Positions 10,822 through 19,732 of a stretch of DNA of 64,000 nt are shown here, one piece after another. The position numbers and the translations under genes were made by a program. Numbering within the stretch: position 1 is the stretch's first letter; each line of letters begins with the position of its first letter. Origin of the DNA: Dictyostelium discoideum (lineage: Eukaryota); contig CM000154.2 in the NCBI GenBank assembly GCA_000004695.1, forward strand, positions 2,784,001 to 2,848,000, given 5' to 3'. The notes under the pieces were generated by a model. That model was not told the DNA's origin, searched no databases, and saw only the letters and a list, made by a program, of their open reading frames with translations.

Positions 10822-13698
10822 ATGAAGTTTAGAGATCTTTTAAATGATCATATTATTAGTCATTGGAGAGATAAATATATTGATTATGAATATTTAAAGG
10901 ATTTAATAGATAGAGAATATCATAATGCACCAAATTCATTAAATAATAGTATGATGATTGATATGTCACAATCAATCAATAATACAATCGCCGAACAATA
11001 TAGTGTCAATGATATTTCATCAATGGTAACCAAAGGTGGTATAAATGATTCACCAACTACAGATATTGAAGTGGATGAAACTGCAGATAGTCCAGCTATA
11101 CCTTCACCAATTATAAGTCACAGTAATATTAATAGTAATAATAATAATAATGGTGGAACAAATAGTGTTGGATTTTCTCATCTTCATAGACAATTAAATA
11201 GACAAAATAGCAATCTTAAAAATAGTAGTAATAGTATTAATTTACTTAAAGCCGATGATTCAAATAATATTGAAAAACATGTAAAATCATATTTTGATCA
11301 AAGAAATAATAACAACAATATTAATAACATCAATAACAATAATAATAATAATAGTAATAATAGTAATAATAGTAATAATAATAAAACAATTAAAAATACA
11401 AGAAATATTATAGCAGATGATGATGGTGGTAATGAAGATACTACACTTGGATCACCATTTAGTTCACCATCAATTGGATCACCACCAATGTCATCACCAT
11501 CACCAAAGATGTTAAAACAAGAATTACATTCACCATTGTTAACATCAGAAAAGGATGAAGATGAAGAGGAAGAAGGAGAAGAAGAAGAAGATATTGAAAT
11601 GGAGCAATTGGAATTGGATGATCATGATAAAAATACAACTATCAATATGACAGCCAATGGTAGTAGAGGAAATTTACGTAAAGGAATGAATCAATTTGTT
11701 AAAACAATACCGCAAAATATAAAACAATTAAATAGTCAAATTAGTAATTCATTTTTAAAATTTGGTGGTATGGTTAAAGGCGATAAAAGTAATGATAAAA
11801 ATAATGATAAAAGCAATGATAAAAATAATAATAAAAATAATAAAAATAATAATAATAATAATAATTTAAATGATGAAGATAATTTTGATATGATGACATC
11901 ACAAATTGAAAAAGTATTAAATAATAAAGATAATATGAAATTAATGGAAAGTTGTACATTTACAACTAAAGAGAATTTTCAAACAGCATTTGTTGATCAA
12001 GTTAATAAGGTTGATTCATTTTTTGTTGAAAGATATAGAAAGACCAAAGAGAAATGTGTTGAACTTTGTAATATGATTCCATTTTTATCAACAAATGAAC
12101 AATTGAGAACAATTAGAAATATTGAATTTGTAAAACAAGGATTTCAAGACAATTATCATTATTTAGAATCATTGGAAGCATTTAAAGAATTGAATATTAA
12201 AGGTTTTAAAAAGGTATTGGAAAAGTATGAAAAAAAGAATCGTATAATTTCATCAGAATGTAGAAAATATTTAGAGAATACTAGAATCTTTGAAAATGAT
12301 AGTCCAGTTAGATTTTTATCACATAGAATTAAACATTTGTATGCACGTTATTTCACTGGTAATGATGTAAAGTTGGCATCCAATCAAATTAAAACCTATG
12401 CAGAGGATGAACGTTTTCAAAAGTATAATCTATTCACAATTGGTTTACTAATTGGTGTTTGCATTGTGTTGGGAATTCAAGTTGTATTCAATTACTATTA
12501 CTATTATCCACACGAACAACCACCAATCGATTCACCATTGGCATGGTTATTATTCCGTATTTCACTGCTACCCATTCTATTGGGTACAATGTTTTCATTG
12601 ATGTCGTTTATTTGGGAAAAGAGTGGTATAAATTATGTATTCATATTCGAGTTTAAACCTGACCATAAGAGATCGCCTGGACGTTATTTAAAGTATGGTT
12701 TAATTTTCAATACACTTTGGCTGTTGGCGTTAAATCTCTATATAGATTCATCATCTCATCAAAATACAACAAGATACTTGATTCTAATTCCAATAGTTTT
12801 CGTATTGATCACTTTGATCATCGGTATTCAACCATTTCCAATAATGGCACATCGTACTCGTTTTTGGGTTTTGAAGAAGATCGTCAAGGTAGTTTCAGCT
12901 CCATGGGTGCCTGTAAGATTTCCAGATTTCTTTATGAGTGTTCAGTTGCTAAGTCTTGGTGAATTCCTTTTCAATATTCAATCAATGGTTTGTGTTTTCA
13001 ACTATAGTGCATTGGATCCTGAAGAGGTGAAATTTTGTTCACAATCCCGTTTCTTTGCTTTACCAGTTTTAAATGCCTTACCATATTGGTGGCGTGTTGC
13101 TCAATGTTTTAGACGTTATTATGAAACTCGTCAATTCTTTCCACATATTACAAGTGCAATTCGTTCAATCTTTTCAATTATTGCATTGGTTTTAAATTAT
13201 ATTGCATTGGAATATTCTCAACATGATTGGAGTATTATCAAGATAGCTTGGTTTGGTATTAATGTGGTTGGTAGCTTTTATAAATTCTATGCCGATATGT
13301 CTGTAGATTGGGGTTTCTTTAATAATTATAAAACCAATCCTGCTTGGCCATTAAGAGAGAAATTGGTTTTCAAAAAAAAATGGATCTATTATGTTGCAAT
13401 CACTTTGGATTTCTTTTTAAGATTCACTTGGTTAATCATTTTCTCAATTAGAAAAGGCTCAAAACATAGACTTGACAATCCACTCTTTTTATTCTTTTTC
13501 TCTCTAACTGAAGTGGTTTGGGCAACACAATTCATTTTCTTCCGTGTTGAATCTGAACATGTTCAATCTCCAGATACCTATAGTTCTTTCCAAGATATTC
13601 CAATTCCATTCTCTCAAGAATATAATAATTATATGGATGAAAAGAAAAAAAGAAGAAAAAGAAAACAAAAACAATCAAAAAGCAATAATAACAACAAC

Positions 13699-13731
<33 letters not shown>

Positions 13732-14064
13732 CGTCTTCATCATAATGATAGTAGTAATAATGTTGAAACTGATGAAACTATTACTTCTTCAAATAATACT
13801 GATAGTAGTCATCAAAAACAACCTCTAACTCATAATCGTCATCATAATCATAATCATAATCATCAAGATCATCATGATCTTTCTATTAATGATCATATGA
13901 ATCCTGATACTGGTGATATTAATTTCGATTCAAAAATCGATTATAAAGATGATGAAGCTTATAATTTAAGACAATCATCACTACGTACTTCAATTTCTCG
14001 TAATGCTTCCCATGTAGATTTAGGTCGTGTTTCTTCTCATAATGATTTAAATATAAGTAGAGGT

Positions 14065-14067
<3 letters not shown>
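10822..14067 (+). CDS. SPX and EXS domain-containing protein (XPR1/PHO1-like phosphate exporter family), single exon, 1081 aa
   Basis: N-terminal SPX signature MKFRDLLNDHIISHWRDKYIDYEYLKDLI. Multiple TM helices follow. The C-terminal EXS-type region is (..ALPYWWRVAQCFRRYYETRQFFPH...WGFFNNYKTNPAWPLREKLVF..FFLRFTWL..). There are large N/S-rich insertions and a His-rich tail. The uninterrupted ORF is flanked by poly(A) and poly(T) tracts. Confidence 0.8.
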
Positions 14068-14101
<34 letters not shown>

Positions 14102-14333
14102 TTTTTTTTTATTTAAATAAATTTAAATAAATATTGTGTTAATATAAAATAAAATAATAAAAAAAAAAAAAAAGATAATTATCTTTGAAAAAGAGTAAAA
14201 AATTTTTAAAAAAATTGTATGAGATTTACTTTTTTGTTTTTTTGGGACAGAAGAAGATATTTAATTTTTAAAAAAAGATTTTATTGAAATAATGAAAAAA
14301 TGCTATAACTTTAACTCCTATAACGCTATTTAT

Positions 14334-14721
14334 TTAATTACAGCAATATTTTTTACCTATTTGGATATAGTTACATGAATCTAAATTCAAACCATTGGTA
14401 TCCATGAAGCTTTGGAGTGAGACTCCACATCCTTTTTTTAAACAGGTTATTAAAGATTGAAAAAAAAAATAATTAATAAAAATCCAGATTTTAATAGATA
14501 AACTTTAAAGTTTATAAAAAAAGGAGTTTTCAATCAAAGTTGTTAAAAATAATAAATTTTAATGATTTACCTCTACTCATGTCCCAGCAAGTGTAACCTT
14601 CCTCTGCATAATACCAGGAAGAACATCTTCCTTCAGTTTCAGCATTGGAAACGAAGGAAAAGACACATAAAACTAAACTTAAAACTACCAAAAAACTTAA
14701 AAACTTGTTTACAAAAAACAA
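14334..14721 (-). CDS. Small secreted cysteine-rich peptide precursor, paralog 1, two exons. Approximately join(14334..14431,14570..14721), about 83 aa.
   Basis: Exon 1: signal peptide MFFVNKFLSFLVVLSLVLCVFSFVSNA followed by ETEGRCSSWYYAEEGYTCWDMSRG. A GTAAAT donor on the minus strand is followed by an intron of about 138 nt and an AAAAAAAG acceptor. Exon 2 reads CGVSLQSFMDTNGLNLDSCNYIQIGKKYCCN* and aligns residue-for-residue with the intronless paralog at 18474..18686. The ORF track names the start M by a TTG; the true ATG could not be verified by eye. Confidence 0.55.
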
Positions 14722-14884
14722 TATAATTAGAATTGATTTTTATTTTTTTATTTTATATTTTTTTAATCTTCTAATATTTACTTTATTCATTCTTTAAAGG
14801 ATATATTTAATTGAAATACTATTTATTTAATAATTTGTTGCTCAATGTATTTCTTTTGGTTATTATTTTTTTCTTTTATAGTCG

Positions 14885-14917
<33 letters not shown>

Positions 14918-15898
14918 TAATAAATGCAAATTTTCAAATAAATTATATTAATTTTATATTAGTCATATAATACCACCAATTTATCTGAATTTTGGACCGA
15001 AAAAATATTAAAAGAAGAATAGAACAAAAAAATAAATAAATAAATAAAACTTGTAAATTCAATGGTATAAAATGATATAAACTCGTATGGACTAAAATAA
15101 TTAAGAATTGGAATTTGGTTGTTAGGCTTTTATATTAGATAGTACCAACAACTTTGTATTGATATATATGAAATTTTTTATTTTATTTAATTTTTTTTTT
15201 TAAAAAATAAAAAATTGGTGTGAATAGATAATTTGAAAAAATTATTTGTTTGTCTCAATCATATAATTAATTTGAATTTATTTATGTACTCATTAACAAA
15301 GGAGGCCATAAAATTAATTTTTTTATTTATTTTTCAAATTTATTATTTAATATCTATTTTAATAAAATAAAATAAAAAAAAAAAATAAAAATAAAAAAAG
15401 TAATTTTATATTATGGTAATTGATAAAAAAAATATTTTTAGTGGTTAAAATTATACAGATGGTTCTAATTAGAAATTGAATTGAAATTTAATCATTAAAA
15501 TGACAATTACATTAATGTTCTTGTCTTCAATAACAATTATAGATAAATATAATCTTTAGATAATATTTTCCAACTTTTATTTTTAAAATTTATATGATTA
15601 TCAATTTTTTCATTTTATTTAAATGATTTTTTAAATTTTAAAAAATTAATCATCAAATGAAATAATTTACGCTTCATATAACTTTCAGTATTTTTGAAAT
15701 TTGAAAATTTATTCAAAATTAATAAACATTACAATAAAAACTCATTAAAAGATAGTAGATGTTACAAGATTTATTTAACCAATTGTTTTTTTTTTTTGAA
15801 ATTGTATATTGGTTGTAGTTTCCTAAAAAGAAAATAAAAAAATAAGCTGAAAATATAGCAATAAAATAATGTAAAATAATTGATGAATTTTCATTATT

Positions 15899-15988
15899 NN
15901 NNNNNNNNNNNNNNNNNNNNNNNNNNNNNNNNNNNNNNNNNNNNNNNNNNNNNNNNNNNNNNNNNNNNNNNNNNNNNNNNNNNNNNNN
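15899..15988. other. Assembly gap (90 N)
   Basis: Run of n characters. Immediately 3' of the gap a 25-nt unit (catttaatttattttatttaaaaaa) occurs twice in tandem. Confidence 0.99.
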
Positions 15989-16510
15989 NNNNNNNNNNCA
16001 TTTAATTTATTTTATTTAAAAAATAATCATTTAATTTATTTTATTTAAAAAATCTCATTTTTGATAAACAATATTGAAAAGGCTTCATGTGCATTTTATT
16101 ATATTAGTTTTTTTTTTTTTTTAAAAAAATGGGGTTAATATAGCACTTTGTGTTTTCTTTTTTTATTTTGTTTATTTTTATTATTTTAATAAATGGAGTT
16201 ATTAAAAGTAGTTATTAAATTAATAATATTTAAATTTTAAATTGCAATTTAATAAGTTGATATAAGCAAAACCCATAATCGAATTAATCTCATTTTTATA
16301 ATACTAATAATTTAAACCTTATTTAAAAATGATTTAATTTTAATTCCCATAAATTTGAAATAATAGGGTAATACAAGCAAACCATATCATTGGAAAATAA
16401 TAAATAAAATAAAGGAATTTTATATATAATAGTTTATTAAATTTTAATTGATTATTAAAAAAAAAAAAAAATAATTGAAAAAAAAAAAAAAAAAAAAAAA
16501 AAATTTAAAA

Positions 16511-16560
16511 AAGATTTGAGGGTTTAGAAAAGAATAATATCATATAGAGATATTATTAAA
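16511..16560. repeat. Relic copy of the 3'-flank unit of the small-peptide gene family. Similar to 17383..17440.
   Basis: agaataatatcatatagagatattattaaaatttatttatcat at 16511 matches agaataatatcacaaagagatataattaaatttttatttatcat at 17383. Confidence 0.5.
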
Positions 16561-17149
16561 ATTTATTTATCATTATATTGGGCTAATAATTGAATAAAAA
16601 TCTCCTTTCTTATTATCCAAAAAGCAATTATCAAAATTTTAAATTGTTATTAAATTTAATAATTTTATGTTTTAATTTATATTATTATTTTTTATATTTT
16701 ATTTTTCACTTTTAAGTAAAAACTATTATTTAAAGAGTCAAACCCAAAAACAGTAACTTGATTTTACATAATATTTTAAATATTAAAAACTTTAATTTAA
16801 ATTATAATTTTAAGAAAATGGAAAATATAAGGACTTATATTAAATCCCTATTTTTTACATTTAAAAAAAAAAGAAAAATTTCTAAAGTCAATTACACATT
16901 AATTTTTTTTTTTTTATTATAAAAACCAACTGTCAAGTTTGAAACTTATACAAAAAATAGGTAGCAAAAAACAAAATTTAATTTAATTTTAAATTATAAT
17001 TTATTAGTATTGTTGTTGAATATTATCTTTTTCTTTTTTTCTTTTTTTTTTTTTTTTTTTTAAATAACCAACAAAATTAAAATTTAAATGTTTCATACCT
17101 CCTAAATTTCCCATTTCATTTTATTTTATTAATCATAAAAACCTCAATT

Positions 17150-17210
17150 CTTTAAATTGCGACAATATTTTCTACCAATTAGAACGTGTTTTCAATCAAA
17201 TTCTACGACA
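17150..17210 (-). pseudogene. Degenerate C-terminal fragment of a small Cys-rich peptide paralog
   Basis: The minus-strand translation ..KHVLIGRKYCRNLK.. matches the family C-terminus ..KLVQIGRKYCCN*. It has a C-to-R change and no stop. The flanking DNA 17071..17200 is a near-duplicate of 18376..18480. Confidence 0.4.
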
Positions 17211-17436
17211 TTAAAAAAAAAAAAAAAAAATTTGGATAAAATGATATTATTAAAATTTATAATTGTAATTAACTATTTAAATAATTACACTGGAAAAAAG
17301 AAACTGACAAATTTTATCCCATATCCAAAACTTAACCAAGTTTTATCTCTTAAAAAAAAAAAAAATTGGAAAATATAATTTTAAAGTTTGGACAAGAATA
17401 ATATCACAAAGAGATATAATTAAATTTTTATTTATC

Positions 17437-17645
17437 ATCGTTTAATTACAACAATATTTTTCCCCACTATAATATTGCTGCAATCCTTTTTATAATTTAA
17501 ATTATTAATTTTCAAAAAAGAATTCAATGACAAATGGCAAGAAGTTGACATATCGATACAACTATGACTCAAAGCCCTTTCTGGCATGATGTAATCAGTG
17601 CAACCGTTTTCTTCAGCATTTAAGCCTACAGAGAAAAGAAATAAA
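17437..17645 (-). pseudogene. Small Cys-rich peptide paralog 3, probably a pseudogene (frameshifted)
   Basis: The minus-strand translation LNAEENGCTDYIMPERALSHSCIDMSTSCHLSLNSFLKINNLNYKKDCSNIIVG.. is homologous to paralog 2. The ATG-containing signal-peptide segment (MICFISFLC) is out of frame with the mature peptide. A 2-nt expansion of an A-run before the conserved KYCCN* end shifts the frame. Either event could be a homopolymer sequencing error. Confidence 0.4.
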
Positions 17646-18473
17646 GCAAATCATGTTAAACTTAATAACTTAGATTTGGAATTAGTAAAAATAAAATTTG
17701 AAAAATAAAATTCGGTAATTTCTTATTTTTTGATGAGATAAAATTTGGTAATTTCTTTTTTTTAGTGTAATTTTTTGAACATTTTATTACAATTATAATT
17801 ATAATTCATACAAGCATAAAAAATTAATGGACAATTATAAAGTTGCAATTTTTTTTATTTATGGTCACCATAAATTGATTTTATTTTATTGGTTTTTTTT
17901 TTTTAACAAGATTGTTAATGTAATTAAAGATATAAAAAAAAACAAAAAAAGAAAAAAAAATTTAAAATTTTTTTGTTTGCTAAAACTTGTGCAAATAAAA
18001 CACCTAACAATAATCTATTTAATTTTTTTTTTTTTAATTTTTTTAGCAAATTACTATAGATATTTTTTTGGATATTTTTTAAAAATACCCCATAAAGGTT
18101 TTTTTTTATTATTATTTGGCCTAAAAAAGTTCTTTGTAACCAAAGTCACAACGAATTCCCATTGTATATTCCCAGACCAATGAACACCACATGTCTTCAA
18201 CAGATTTCTTTTTTCTCTATTTTTTATTAATCATTATTTTTTTTTTTTTATTTTTTATTTAGGATTAAAAAAAAAAAAAATAAATAAAAATCAAATAAAC
18301 AAAAAAAAAAACAAACAAAGCTTTTATATTAAAACAATTGTTCAATATTATATTTTTATTTTATTTTTTTAAAAAATCAACAAAATTAAAATTTAAATGT
18401 TTCATACCTATAAATTTTACAGTAAATTTCCCATTCCTTTTTATTTTATTAATCAGATAAAATTCCAATGCAC

Positions 18474-18686
18474 TTAATTACAACAATATTTTCTTCCAAT
18501 TTGGACGAGTTTACAAGCATTGTTATCCAATTTATTTGTACGCATGAATTGATCAAGAGTAACTTTACAAGAAGTGGCCATATCATAGCAGGTATAACCT
18601 TTTTGAGCTACATGCCAACTTGAACATGAACCCATTTCCTCGGCATTTGAACATGAGAAAGCACATAAAACTAAAACAAATGCCAA
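18474..18686 (-). CDS. Small secreted cysteine-rich peptide precursor, paralog 2, intronless, 70 aa
   Basis: Signal peptide MAFVLVLCAFSCSNA. The mature part EEMGSCSSWHVAQKGYTCYDMATSCKVTLDQFMRTNKLDNNACKLVQIGRKYCCN has 8 Cys. It shares the motifs SNAE..G.CSSW..A..GYTC.DM and QIG.KYCCN* with paralog 1. Confidence 0.6.
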   Translation of the reverse strand: MAFVLVLCAFSCSNAEEMGSCSSWHVAQKGYTCYDMATSCKVTLDQFMRTNKLDNNACKLVQIGRKYCCN

Positions 18687-19732
18687 TCCTATTAAATTTA
18701 AAAACTTTTGATTTTTTAAAAAATAAAATTAATATTACTTTTTTTTTTTTTTTTATATATTTTTATAATTTTTACCTTGTTCATTTTTATACTAATTTAA
18801 ATTTGAATATTTAATGTTTACTTTTTTTTTTGATGAATAATATAAAATAAAAAAATGATATTTATACCTTTTTCTTATTTAGGTTTTTTTTATTTTAATT
18901 TTATTTTTTTAATTAAAACTTTTAAAATTACAAATAGTGGTAATTAATACCAATAAACTAGTAATATTGTTACAAATATGCAATAAAATGACGATATTAA
19001 AAATAAAAATTAAAACTACACCAATAGCTTTAAATAGGAAATCTTAAAATTAAACAATAATTTCCTTTTTAATTTTTTATATCAATTTGAACATAATCAC
19101 ACATACTTTAATATTTAATTATATCAAAAAATAAAAAATAAAAAAAAAAATAAAAAATAAAAAAAAAAAAAAAAAAAAAAAAGTGGGGTTAAAATATTTG
19201 TAGATTAAAGTAATTATAGGAAATAAAAGATATTATATTAAACTTGGATTAGATTAAAATGTTAGTAGTATAATTTTTTAAAAGAAATTATAATTATATT
19301 AATTAATATATAAAAAAAAAAAAAAAATCTGGAAAATAAATTTTAAAGAAAAAAAAATTAAAGTTTAATTTATCAAATATATGAATGTAGTTTTTTTATT
19401 TAATATCCTATAAAATGAATTTTTGTTGGGAGATAATTATATTGTATCTTTTTTTCAAATAATTAAAAATTTAATCTTTTTATTAATTATTTTAATGATT
19501 TTAAGTTTAATTGGTATTTTTCTATTTTTTTTTTTTTTTTTTTTTTTTTTTGTTGGTATTGTTAAAAATAATTAAATTTTACACACAATATGAAATCCAA
19601 AAAAAATAAAAATGAAAAAAAAAAATAATTTCCAGTGCTTCAATATTTAAAAAGAAATGAATTTTATAATACAAAAAAATAAAGATTATTTATTAAAGAT
19701 TTTTTTTTTTTTTTAAAAAAAAATATCAAATA

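Follow-up and report, generated by a model that had tools for sequence, protein, structure and literature searches.

A window of 64,000 nucleotides (nt) from chromosome 5 of Dictyostelium discoideum AX4 (GenBank assembly GCA_000004695.1, contig CM000154.2, positions 2,784,001 to 2,848,000 of the forward strand; coordinates below count from its first letter) carries a cluster of short, related genes for cysteine-rich proteins, three copies of which we call A, B and C. We consider it highly probable that this chromosome-5 cluster is one of Dictyostelium-specific, tiny secreted proteins with a LysM domain, in which copies A and C are working genes and copy B is dead. A more detailed account, to which we give even chances, adds that copy A is functional but missing from three annotations; that its second intron is a recent gain, made after the split from Dictyostelium firmibasis and before the strains diverged, at an AG/G proto-splice site in the constrained LysM domain; and that the family consists of amoebal stand-alone LysM lectins for the cell-wall glycans of prey or fungi, with a copy number that varies between strains. 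The three copies are laid out as follows (aa, amino acids; GC, guanine plus cytosine).

14334-14790, minus strand: copy A, an intact, unannotated gene for a 79-aa single-LysM protein (MNKFLSFLVVLSLVLCVFSFVSNAETEGRCSSWYYAEEGYTCWDMSRGCGVSLQSFMDTNGLNLDSCNYIQIGKKYCCN); splicing reconstructed from sequence, open reading frame (ORF) of 240 nt
14782-14790, minus strand: copy A, exon 1
14704-14781, minus strand: copy A, intron 1, 78 nt, phase 0, after codon 3; the ancestral family intron
14571-14703, minus strand: copy A, exon 2
14432-14570, minus strand: copy A, intron 2, 139 nt (GTAAAT...AAAAAG), phase 1, 15% GC, within the LysM domain between AGAG and GATG
14334-14431, minus strand: copy A, exon 3, including the stop codon
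17442-17668, minus strand: copy B, a pseudogene of the divergent B-type subfamily, with TGA at 17651-17653 and a 7-nt deletion before KYCCN
17763-17771, minus strand: copy B, first-exon remnant, ATTACACTA in place of ATGAAYAAR; start codon lost (ATT...)
18474-18784, minus strand: copy C, DDB_G0289443 (Q54HI1, XP_636223), 79 aa; its spliced product matches the AX4 protein at 100% over the full length
18776-18784, minus strand: copy C, exon 1
18705-18775, minus strand: copy C, intron, 71 nt
18474-18704, minus strand: copy C, exon 2

Six-frame translation gives three homologous reading frames at the cluster (~14334-14790, 17442-17668 and 18474-18784), and all family copies lie on the minus strand. 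By tblastn, copy A matches copy C at E = 2.4e-25 and the pseudogene copy B at E = 2e-7. The family is one of ~79-residue, predicted secreted proteins in which a signal peptide precedes a single LysM (CBM50) domain stabilised by cysteines. This is a known kind of protein. The motifs SNAE..G.CSSW..A..GYTC.DM and QIG.KYCCN (the latter ending at the stop codon), reported in a preliminary description of this DNA, are found in the copies and confirmed by translation, whereas its eight conserved cysteines are reduced to seven invariant ones in the precursor, the signal peptide containing one and the mature domain the other six (alignment of eight database members). Read by eye, the signal region consists of Met-Asn-Lys, then 16-18 hydrophobic residues, then S-N-A followed by E-E; AlphaFold2 (AF2) gives a low-confidence helix at residues 5-20. 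Cleavage after SNA would remove a signal peptide of ~23 residues and leave a mature domain of ~55 residues with six cysteines.

Assignment to LysM is based on sequence models, solved structures and a predicted fold. Pfam PF01476 LysM gives 20.9 bits for copy A and 21.8 bits for copy C at a cut-off of 20.9, and matches six of the eight family members at E <= 0.01. The best matches of a family profile among PDB sequences come from chitinase A of a fern and of a horsetail, in both cases its LysM module (4pxv, E = 3e-4; 5bum, E = 9e-4), and in the printed 5bum alignment C30, C42, C67 and C77 are in register with the four cysteines of 5BUM. As aligned, these residues would fall at the N-terminus, in helix 1, in the loop before beta2 and in beta2, the arrangement of the eukaryotic disulfide-type LysM of plants and fungi. 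The AF2 model of DDB_G0289443, built on the family alignment, has a beta-alpha-alpha-beta fold (E32-35, H42-48, H53-59, E75-78) with a predicted local distance difference test score of 83-92 over the domain. The best 32 Foldseek matches to it in the PDB are all LysM-domain structures, with root-mean-square deviations of 1.5-2.0 A over 45-49 residues and target-normalised TM (template modelling) scores up to 0.79. An unknown class of peptide is ruled out by these Pfam, PDB-profile, AF2 and Foldseek matches.

The family extends beyond the window, as the proposal of a gene family called for: tblastn and profile searches found six copies in D. firmibasis, paralogs on chromosome 6 and a homolog in Polysphondylium violaceum. 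An exhaustive HMMER search of 1.84 billion representatives returned 460 proteins at E <= 1e-3, almost all with multiple LysM domains, and the two best multi-LysM relatives looked up are from chytrid fungi; the only other short single-domain matches are DDB_G0293854, DDB_G0289783 and one P. violaceum protein. The paralogs DDB_G0289443, DDB_G0293854, DDB_G0289783 and the chromosome-6 tandem pair Q54BN7/Q54BN6, together with D. firmibasis RB653_008944-008949, have in common the MNK exon, the intron, the signal peptide and a single cysteine-rich LysM domain ending ...IG.KYCCN, as in the chromosome-5 copies. In contrast to these relatives, copy A is missing from their sets and is the sole bearer of a second intron, and copy B belongs to the DDB_G0293854 subtype but is dead. 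The name "peptidoglycan-binding lysin domain" is already attached to copy C and to Q54BN7/Q54BN6 in the AX4 annotation. DDB_G0289783 (Q54H70), also on chromosome 5, is annotated as a 59-aa B-type protein that stops at ...RTFFGN, without the C-terminal half of the LysM domain, and may be a truncated model or another pseudogene.

Every family member examined opens with a 9-nt exon (ATGAAYAAR, Met-Asn-Lys/Arg), after which comes a phase-0 intron. In D. firmibasis (all six genes) and in the P. violaceum homolog this intron is the only one and lies after codon 3 (ATGAAYAAR/GTA...AG). The long exon of neither copy A nor copy C holds an ATG; ATGAAYAAR followed by GTAAA sits ~70-80 nt upstream, an acceptor ending ...AAG abuts the long exon, and splicing on the 9-nt exon gives products that start MNKFL... 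for both copies. Copy C had been described as intronless; its intron lies at 18705-18775 and its true extent is 18474-18784.

For comparison between strains we used two further loci: L002, in GCA_054883475.1, an independent D. discoideum assembly that is 99.8% identical to the window, and L003, in GCA_054859355.1 (JBTAPG010000020.1), labelled D. discoideum and representing a divergent strain. Across the cluster, the synonymous divergence (dS) between L003 and AX4 is ~0.15-0.17 and non-coding DNA is ~14-16% different, a large distance within one species.

Copy A has a clear counterpart in D. firmibasis. Its product is 84% identical to RB653_008944 by tblastn (87% in the database search), that gene (Df_44) adjoins the same SPX/EXS gene as copy A, and the two pair with 92% bootstrap in a neighbour-joining tree. 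The exact product of copy A was not found among 15 billion proteins, a profile search with copy A as first row returned nine relatives that did not include it, and two newer D. discoideum strain annotations call no gene at this place. The expectation that gene prediction would overlook these genes or model them wrongly was thus right for copy A, which is in no protein set searched, and for copy C in newer annotations, where it is fused to copy B, but copy C is correct in the AX4 reference. The ratio of nonsynonymous to synonymous substitution rates (dN/dS) for copy A is 0.11 against L003 and 0.10 against D. firmibasis, within a range of 0.10-0.20 over copies A, C and D, the last being a copy deleted from AX4 (see below). 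Between AX4 and L003, the exons of copy A are 3.7% different with no indels, compared with 16.4% and 110 gap columns for its introns and flanks (Fisher p = 1e-7). On these comparisons copy A looks alive, that is, intact and under purifying selection.

The absence of copy A from the AX4 protein set and from the two newer annotations could also mean that the copy is dead, that the 139-nt segment is a disruptive insertion and not a spliced intron, and that AX4 has only one working gene. Left unspliced, the segment ends the frame at a stop after ...SRGKSLKFIIFNNFD. We regard this as unlikely: canonical GTAAAT...AG ends are kept in both strains, removal of the segment makes copy A exactly colinear with all paralogs (...SRG/CGVSLQSF...), and exon 3, which lies downstream of it, is constrained. 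Between AX4 and L003, 97 nt of exon 3 show 4 substitutions without any indel, whereas 126 nt of intron 2 show 19, together with 24 gap columns (p = 0.008); tested against the non-coding rate, exon 3 gives a binomial p of 2e-4. Taken alone, it has a dN/dS of 0.20 with L003 as the comparison and 0.06 with D. firmibasis.

With GT-AG ends, a reading frame that is restored by its removal and constrained exons on both sides, 14432-14570 has the sequence properties expected of a spliceosomal intron. The flanking exons are 96% identical between AX4 and L003, with no indels, and the intron is 85% identical, with 24 gap columns. An intron of about 138 nt had been proposed here; it is real in the sequence, with an exact length of 139 nt, but the 78-nt intron 1 and the 9-nt exon had been missed. 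Intron 2 is found in copy A of AX4, L002 and L003, and neither in the ortholog Df_44 nor in any other member examined. At the corresponding site the D. firmibasis ortholog reads ...TCAAGAG/GATGTAGAG..., where D. discoideum adds 139 nt between AGAG and GATG, and copies B, C and D are uninterrupted. The tree places the intron on the terminal branch of A (AX4 and L003). Because one gain suffices, whereas an ancestral intron would have had to be lost independently four times or more, the best reading is a gain in D. discoideum copy A. Copy A would have acquired its second spliceosomal intron once it had parted from paralog D and, on the simplest view, once D. discoideum had parted from D. firmibasis.

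The preliminary description had favoured the opposite direction, with the internal intron ancestral and copy C derived by retroposition or intron loss. D. discoideum often loses introns through reverse transcriptase, 3' introns in particular (PMC4683709), but we find this scenario very improbable. Copy C retains intron 1 at its ancestral position (18705-18775) and stands in tandem within a syntenic cluster, so it is not intronless, retroposition is unsupported and a processed retrogene is ruled out. The internal intron is not in the six D. firmibasis genes, in P. violaceum or in copies D, B and C, which again sets at least four losses against one gain. The odd copy is therefore A and not C, and gain is the preferred direction. 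The putative gains of Ma et al. 2015 (PMC4683709) are, like intron 2, lineage-specific and mostly without an identifiable source; intron 2 differs in that the species compared is much closer, that a second strain is included and that the rest of its tandem family lacks it. As a candidate for intron gain it is well bracketed by this close sister species and this strain; few comparable cases exist, and a single case carries modest weight. Intron 2 resembles neither intron 1 nor the exons beside it, and there is no target-site duplication beyond AG. Midway through intron 2, at 14498-14515, is a perfect 18-nt palindrome (ATAAACTTTAAAGTTTAT), which falls mostly within a gap of the L003 alignment.

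Copy B has a different history. Among intact genes it is closest to DDB_G0293854 on chromosome 6 (100% bootstrap in the neighbour-joining tree). The copy had been described at 17437-17645 with two frame disruptions; it is a real pseudogene, but the lesions in AX4 are three, namely the lost start codon, an in-frame TGA in the signal peptide, where DDB_G0293854 has GGA, and the 7-nt frame-shifting deletion. In L003, ATGAATAAA is kept, the splice donor is GG in place of GT, the same TGA is present and the C-terminal frame is intact. A recheck of the frameshift had been suggested. The lesions recur in the independent assembly L002 and the TGA is common to L003, which rules out sequencing error. 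Between AX4 and L003, copy B is 77.5% identical with 12-nt and 7-nt indels, against 96% for the exons of copy A, and its divergence of 22% is no slower than that of non-coding DNA, compared with 3.7% for copy A exons. Judged by its disabling lesions and lost constraint, copy B is a pseudogene.

Two 140-aa models in newer NCBI strain annotations (P0005 and P0006) nevertheless join copy C to copy B, running from ...KYCC to (L/S)NAEENG..., as if the two were one gene for a protein with two LysM domains and B were an exon. The join uses a GTAATT donor in the last codons of C and an acceptor, tctctgtag, present by chance in the signal-peptide remnant of B, and in L003 the frame of copy B is open through KYCCN to the stop. 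We think that a single gene is scarcely credible. The fusion needs an intron of ~860 nt where other family introns are 60-139 nt, copy B diverges between strains by 22%, as fast as non-coding DNA, with frame-breaking indels, and in AX4 the second domain would lack the C-terminal cysteine pair. Because that annotation project likewise merges the chromosome-6 pair into a 161-aa model (P0160), where AX4 lists separate 79-aa proteins, the C-B models are probably pipeline artefacts. Fused models occur at L002 8001-9350, L003 8001-9327 and L005 4001-5331 (locus tags ACTFIT, ACTFIW and ACTFIR). For annotation, copy A is to be added to AX4 and copy B flagged as a pseudogene, and the three fused models in the newer assemblies are to be split.

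Two further traces of the family lie between copies A and C.

17044-17198, minus strand: truncated relic of a C-like copy, consisting of the last ~12 codons (17156-17191, KHVLIGRKYCRN) and ~110 nt of 3' flank
16480-16574, minus strand: footprint of the deleted copy D, equal to the 3' flank after the copy D stop in L003, with the junction at ~16572-16574

The first had been placed at 17150-17210 and is a real fragment of a coding end (17156-17191), also matched by tblastn; the accompanying duplication of flanking DNA holds as well, with 17044-17198 and 18353-18519 78% identical over 167 nt. The second, reported as a relic at 16511-16560, is not coding but 3' flank left by the deletion of copy D. 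Window 16574-16000 aligns to L003 10971-11518 and window 16712-16572 to L003 9939-10079. AX4 is therefore without L003 10080-10970, which holds an intact gene (...IGHDYCCN). AX4 lost these ~890 bp in a clean deletion, whose junction shows AAT microhomology. L003 retains copy D intact, and D. firmibasis has an ortholog of it at the same position (RB653_008945); the neighbour-joining tree supports the pairs D/Df_45 (90%) and C/Df_49 (85%). At the syntenic site D. firmibasis has six intact tandem copies, L003 three and one pseudogene, and AX4 two, one pseudogene and two footprints. These tallies support the proposed birth-and-death history of a tandem family of small, cysteine-rich, predicted secreted proteins. 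The cluster changes by tandem duplication, point inactivation and deletion, giving six copies in D. firmibasis, four in L003 and three in AX4.

The LysM of plant chitinase A (Pteris ryukyuensis 4PXV/5YLG; Equisetum arvense 5BUM) provides the best solved structures by sequence and is among the best by fold, but it is joined to a catalytic chitinase domain, whereas the Dictyostelium LysM stands alone; identity is only ~25%, and the Dictyostelium family has an additional cysteine pair (C49, C78). The fungal effector Ecp6 (4B8V) is among the fold matches, and such effectors, like the Dictyostelium proteins, are LysM-only, non-catalytic and secreted, with no orthology shown. They include effectors with a single LysM, such as Mg1LysM and RiSLM. 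Fungal LysM effectors serve fungi in hiding their own chitin from a host, whereas Dictyostelium is a predator of bacteria, and we know of no comparable host interaction for it; for these reasons its LysM proteins probably have another role.

We propose that the mature proteins act as non-catalytic lectins, outside the cell or in the endosomal or phagosomal lumen. Their ligand would be beta-1,4-linked polymers of N-acetylglucosamine (GlcNAc), either the peptidoglycan of prey bacteria or the chitin of fungi and yeasts, and binding might mark, agglutinate or sequester such polymers. Because glycan binding is established LysM biology, the chances that this family too binds GlcNAc-containing glycans seem to us slightly better than even by analogy; any specific role, whether prey marking, agglutination or sequestration of cell-wall fragments, is much less probable than binding itself. 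D. discoideum, a model phagocyte, has to recognise the cell walls of bacteria, and a small LysM lectin family that varies between strains could reasonably serve in binding prey or in handling the microbiome. Much work has been done in fungi and plants on secreted proteins made of LysM alone; we found no functional study of amoebal ones in the literature.

The family is also small, disulfide-rich, predicted to be secreted, arranged in tandem and variable in copy number between strains, traits that are common in defence peptides, and the proteins might act as membrane-active antimicrobial or signalling peptides in which the LysM-like fold is incidental. This we hold to be improbable, as sequence, cysteine positions and predicted fold match carbohydrate-binding LysM modules, and orthologs are under purifying and not diversifying selection. 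A role as glycan-binding lectins is preferred. Sillo et al. 2008 (PMC2443395) found a D. discoideum LysM gene, DDB0218607, whose expression on bacteria is 32-fold higher in V12M2, a wild strain, than in AX2, and suggest that it binds bacterial cell walls; the identifier could not be mapped to the chromosome-5 cluster, and a literature search with DDB0218607 and related phrases gave no further Dictyostelium paper among the matches listed.

Several points weigh against the account given here. The splicing of intron 2 and the secretion of any copy are read from DNA and predicted protein sequence. The Pfam LysM scores of copies A and C (20.9 and 21.8 bits against 20.9) are borderline, though consistent across the family, and the canonical GDT of LysM helix 1 is GYT here, so that the ligand could differ from classical LysM ligands. 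A literature search found no paper naming DDB_G0289443, DDB_G0293854, DDB_G0289783, Q54HI1, Q54BN7 or Q54BN6. As to intron 2, a blastn-short search of the window and all fetched loci for its source gave AT-rich chance matches only. Losses exceed gains in D. discoideum, with 441 losses against 98 putative gains over two species (PMC4683709), and because losses outnumber gains in the genus it is possible that intron 2 was gained on the stem of A and Df_44 and then lost in D. firmibasis.

The surroundings of the cluster are conserved. It is flanked by a PRMT-like methyltransferase gene and a SPX/EXS gene in four of four assemblies (AX4, D. firmibasis and two other D. discoideum assemblies). In the window the gene convergent with copy A (10822-14067, plus strand, 1081 aa) can be read from its sequence as the SPX/EXS gene. 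One interruption falls within the cluster.

15899-15998, no strand: assembly gap of 100 N, equal to 39 nt in L002 (10787-10825)

With only 39 nt in L002, a hidden family copy inside this gap is ruled out.

Between copies B and C, at 18120-18210, is an island of ~80 nt with up to 42% GC amid intergenic DNA of 15-20% GC. Only its last ~25 nt align to L003, and it overlaps a 118-aa ORF noted in the preliminary description. The island has no similarity to the LysM family and is not present at the D. firmibasis locus; an Rfam search with it gives nothing at E <= 1, and its RNA fold z-score is -2.07. No Rfam family reaches its gathering score anywhere within 14000-19200; an alternative reading of the region as non-coding RNA is thus not borne out. 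In D. firmibasis, a gene beyond the SPX/EXS neighbour (L001 14979-16016) has a weak precomputed Pfam match to T6SS_HCP, which is unusual for a eukaryote.

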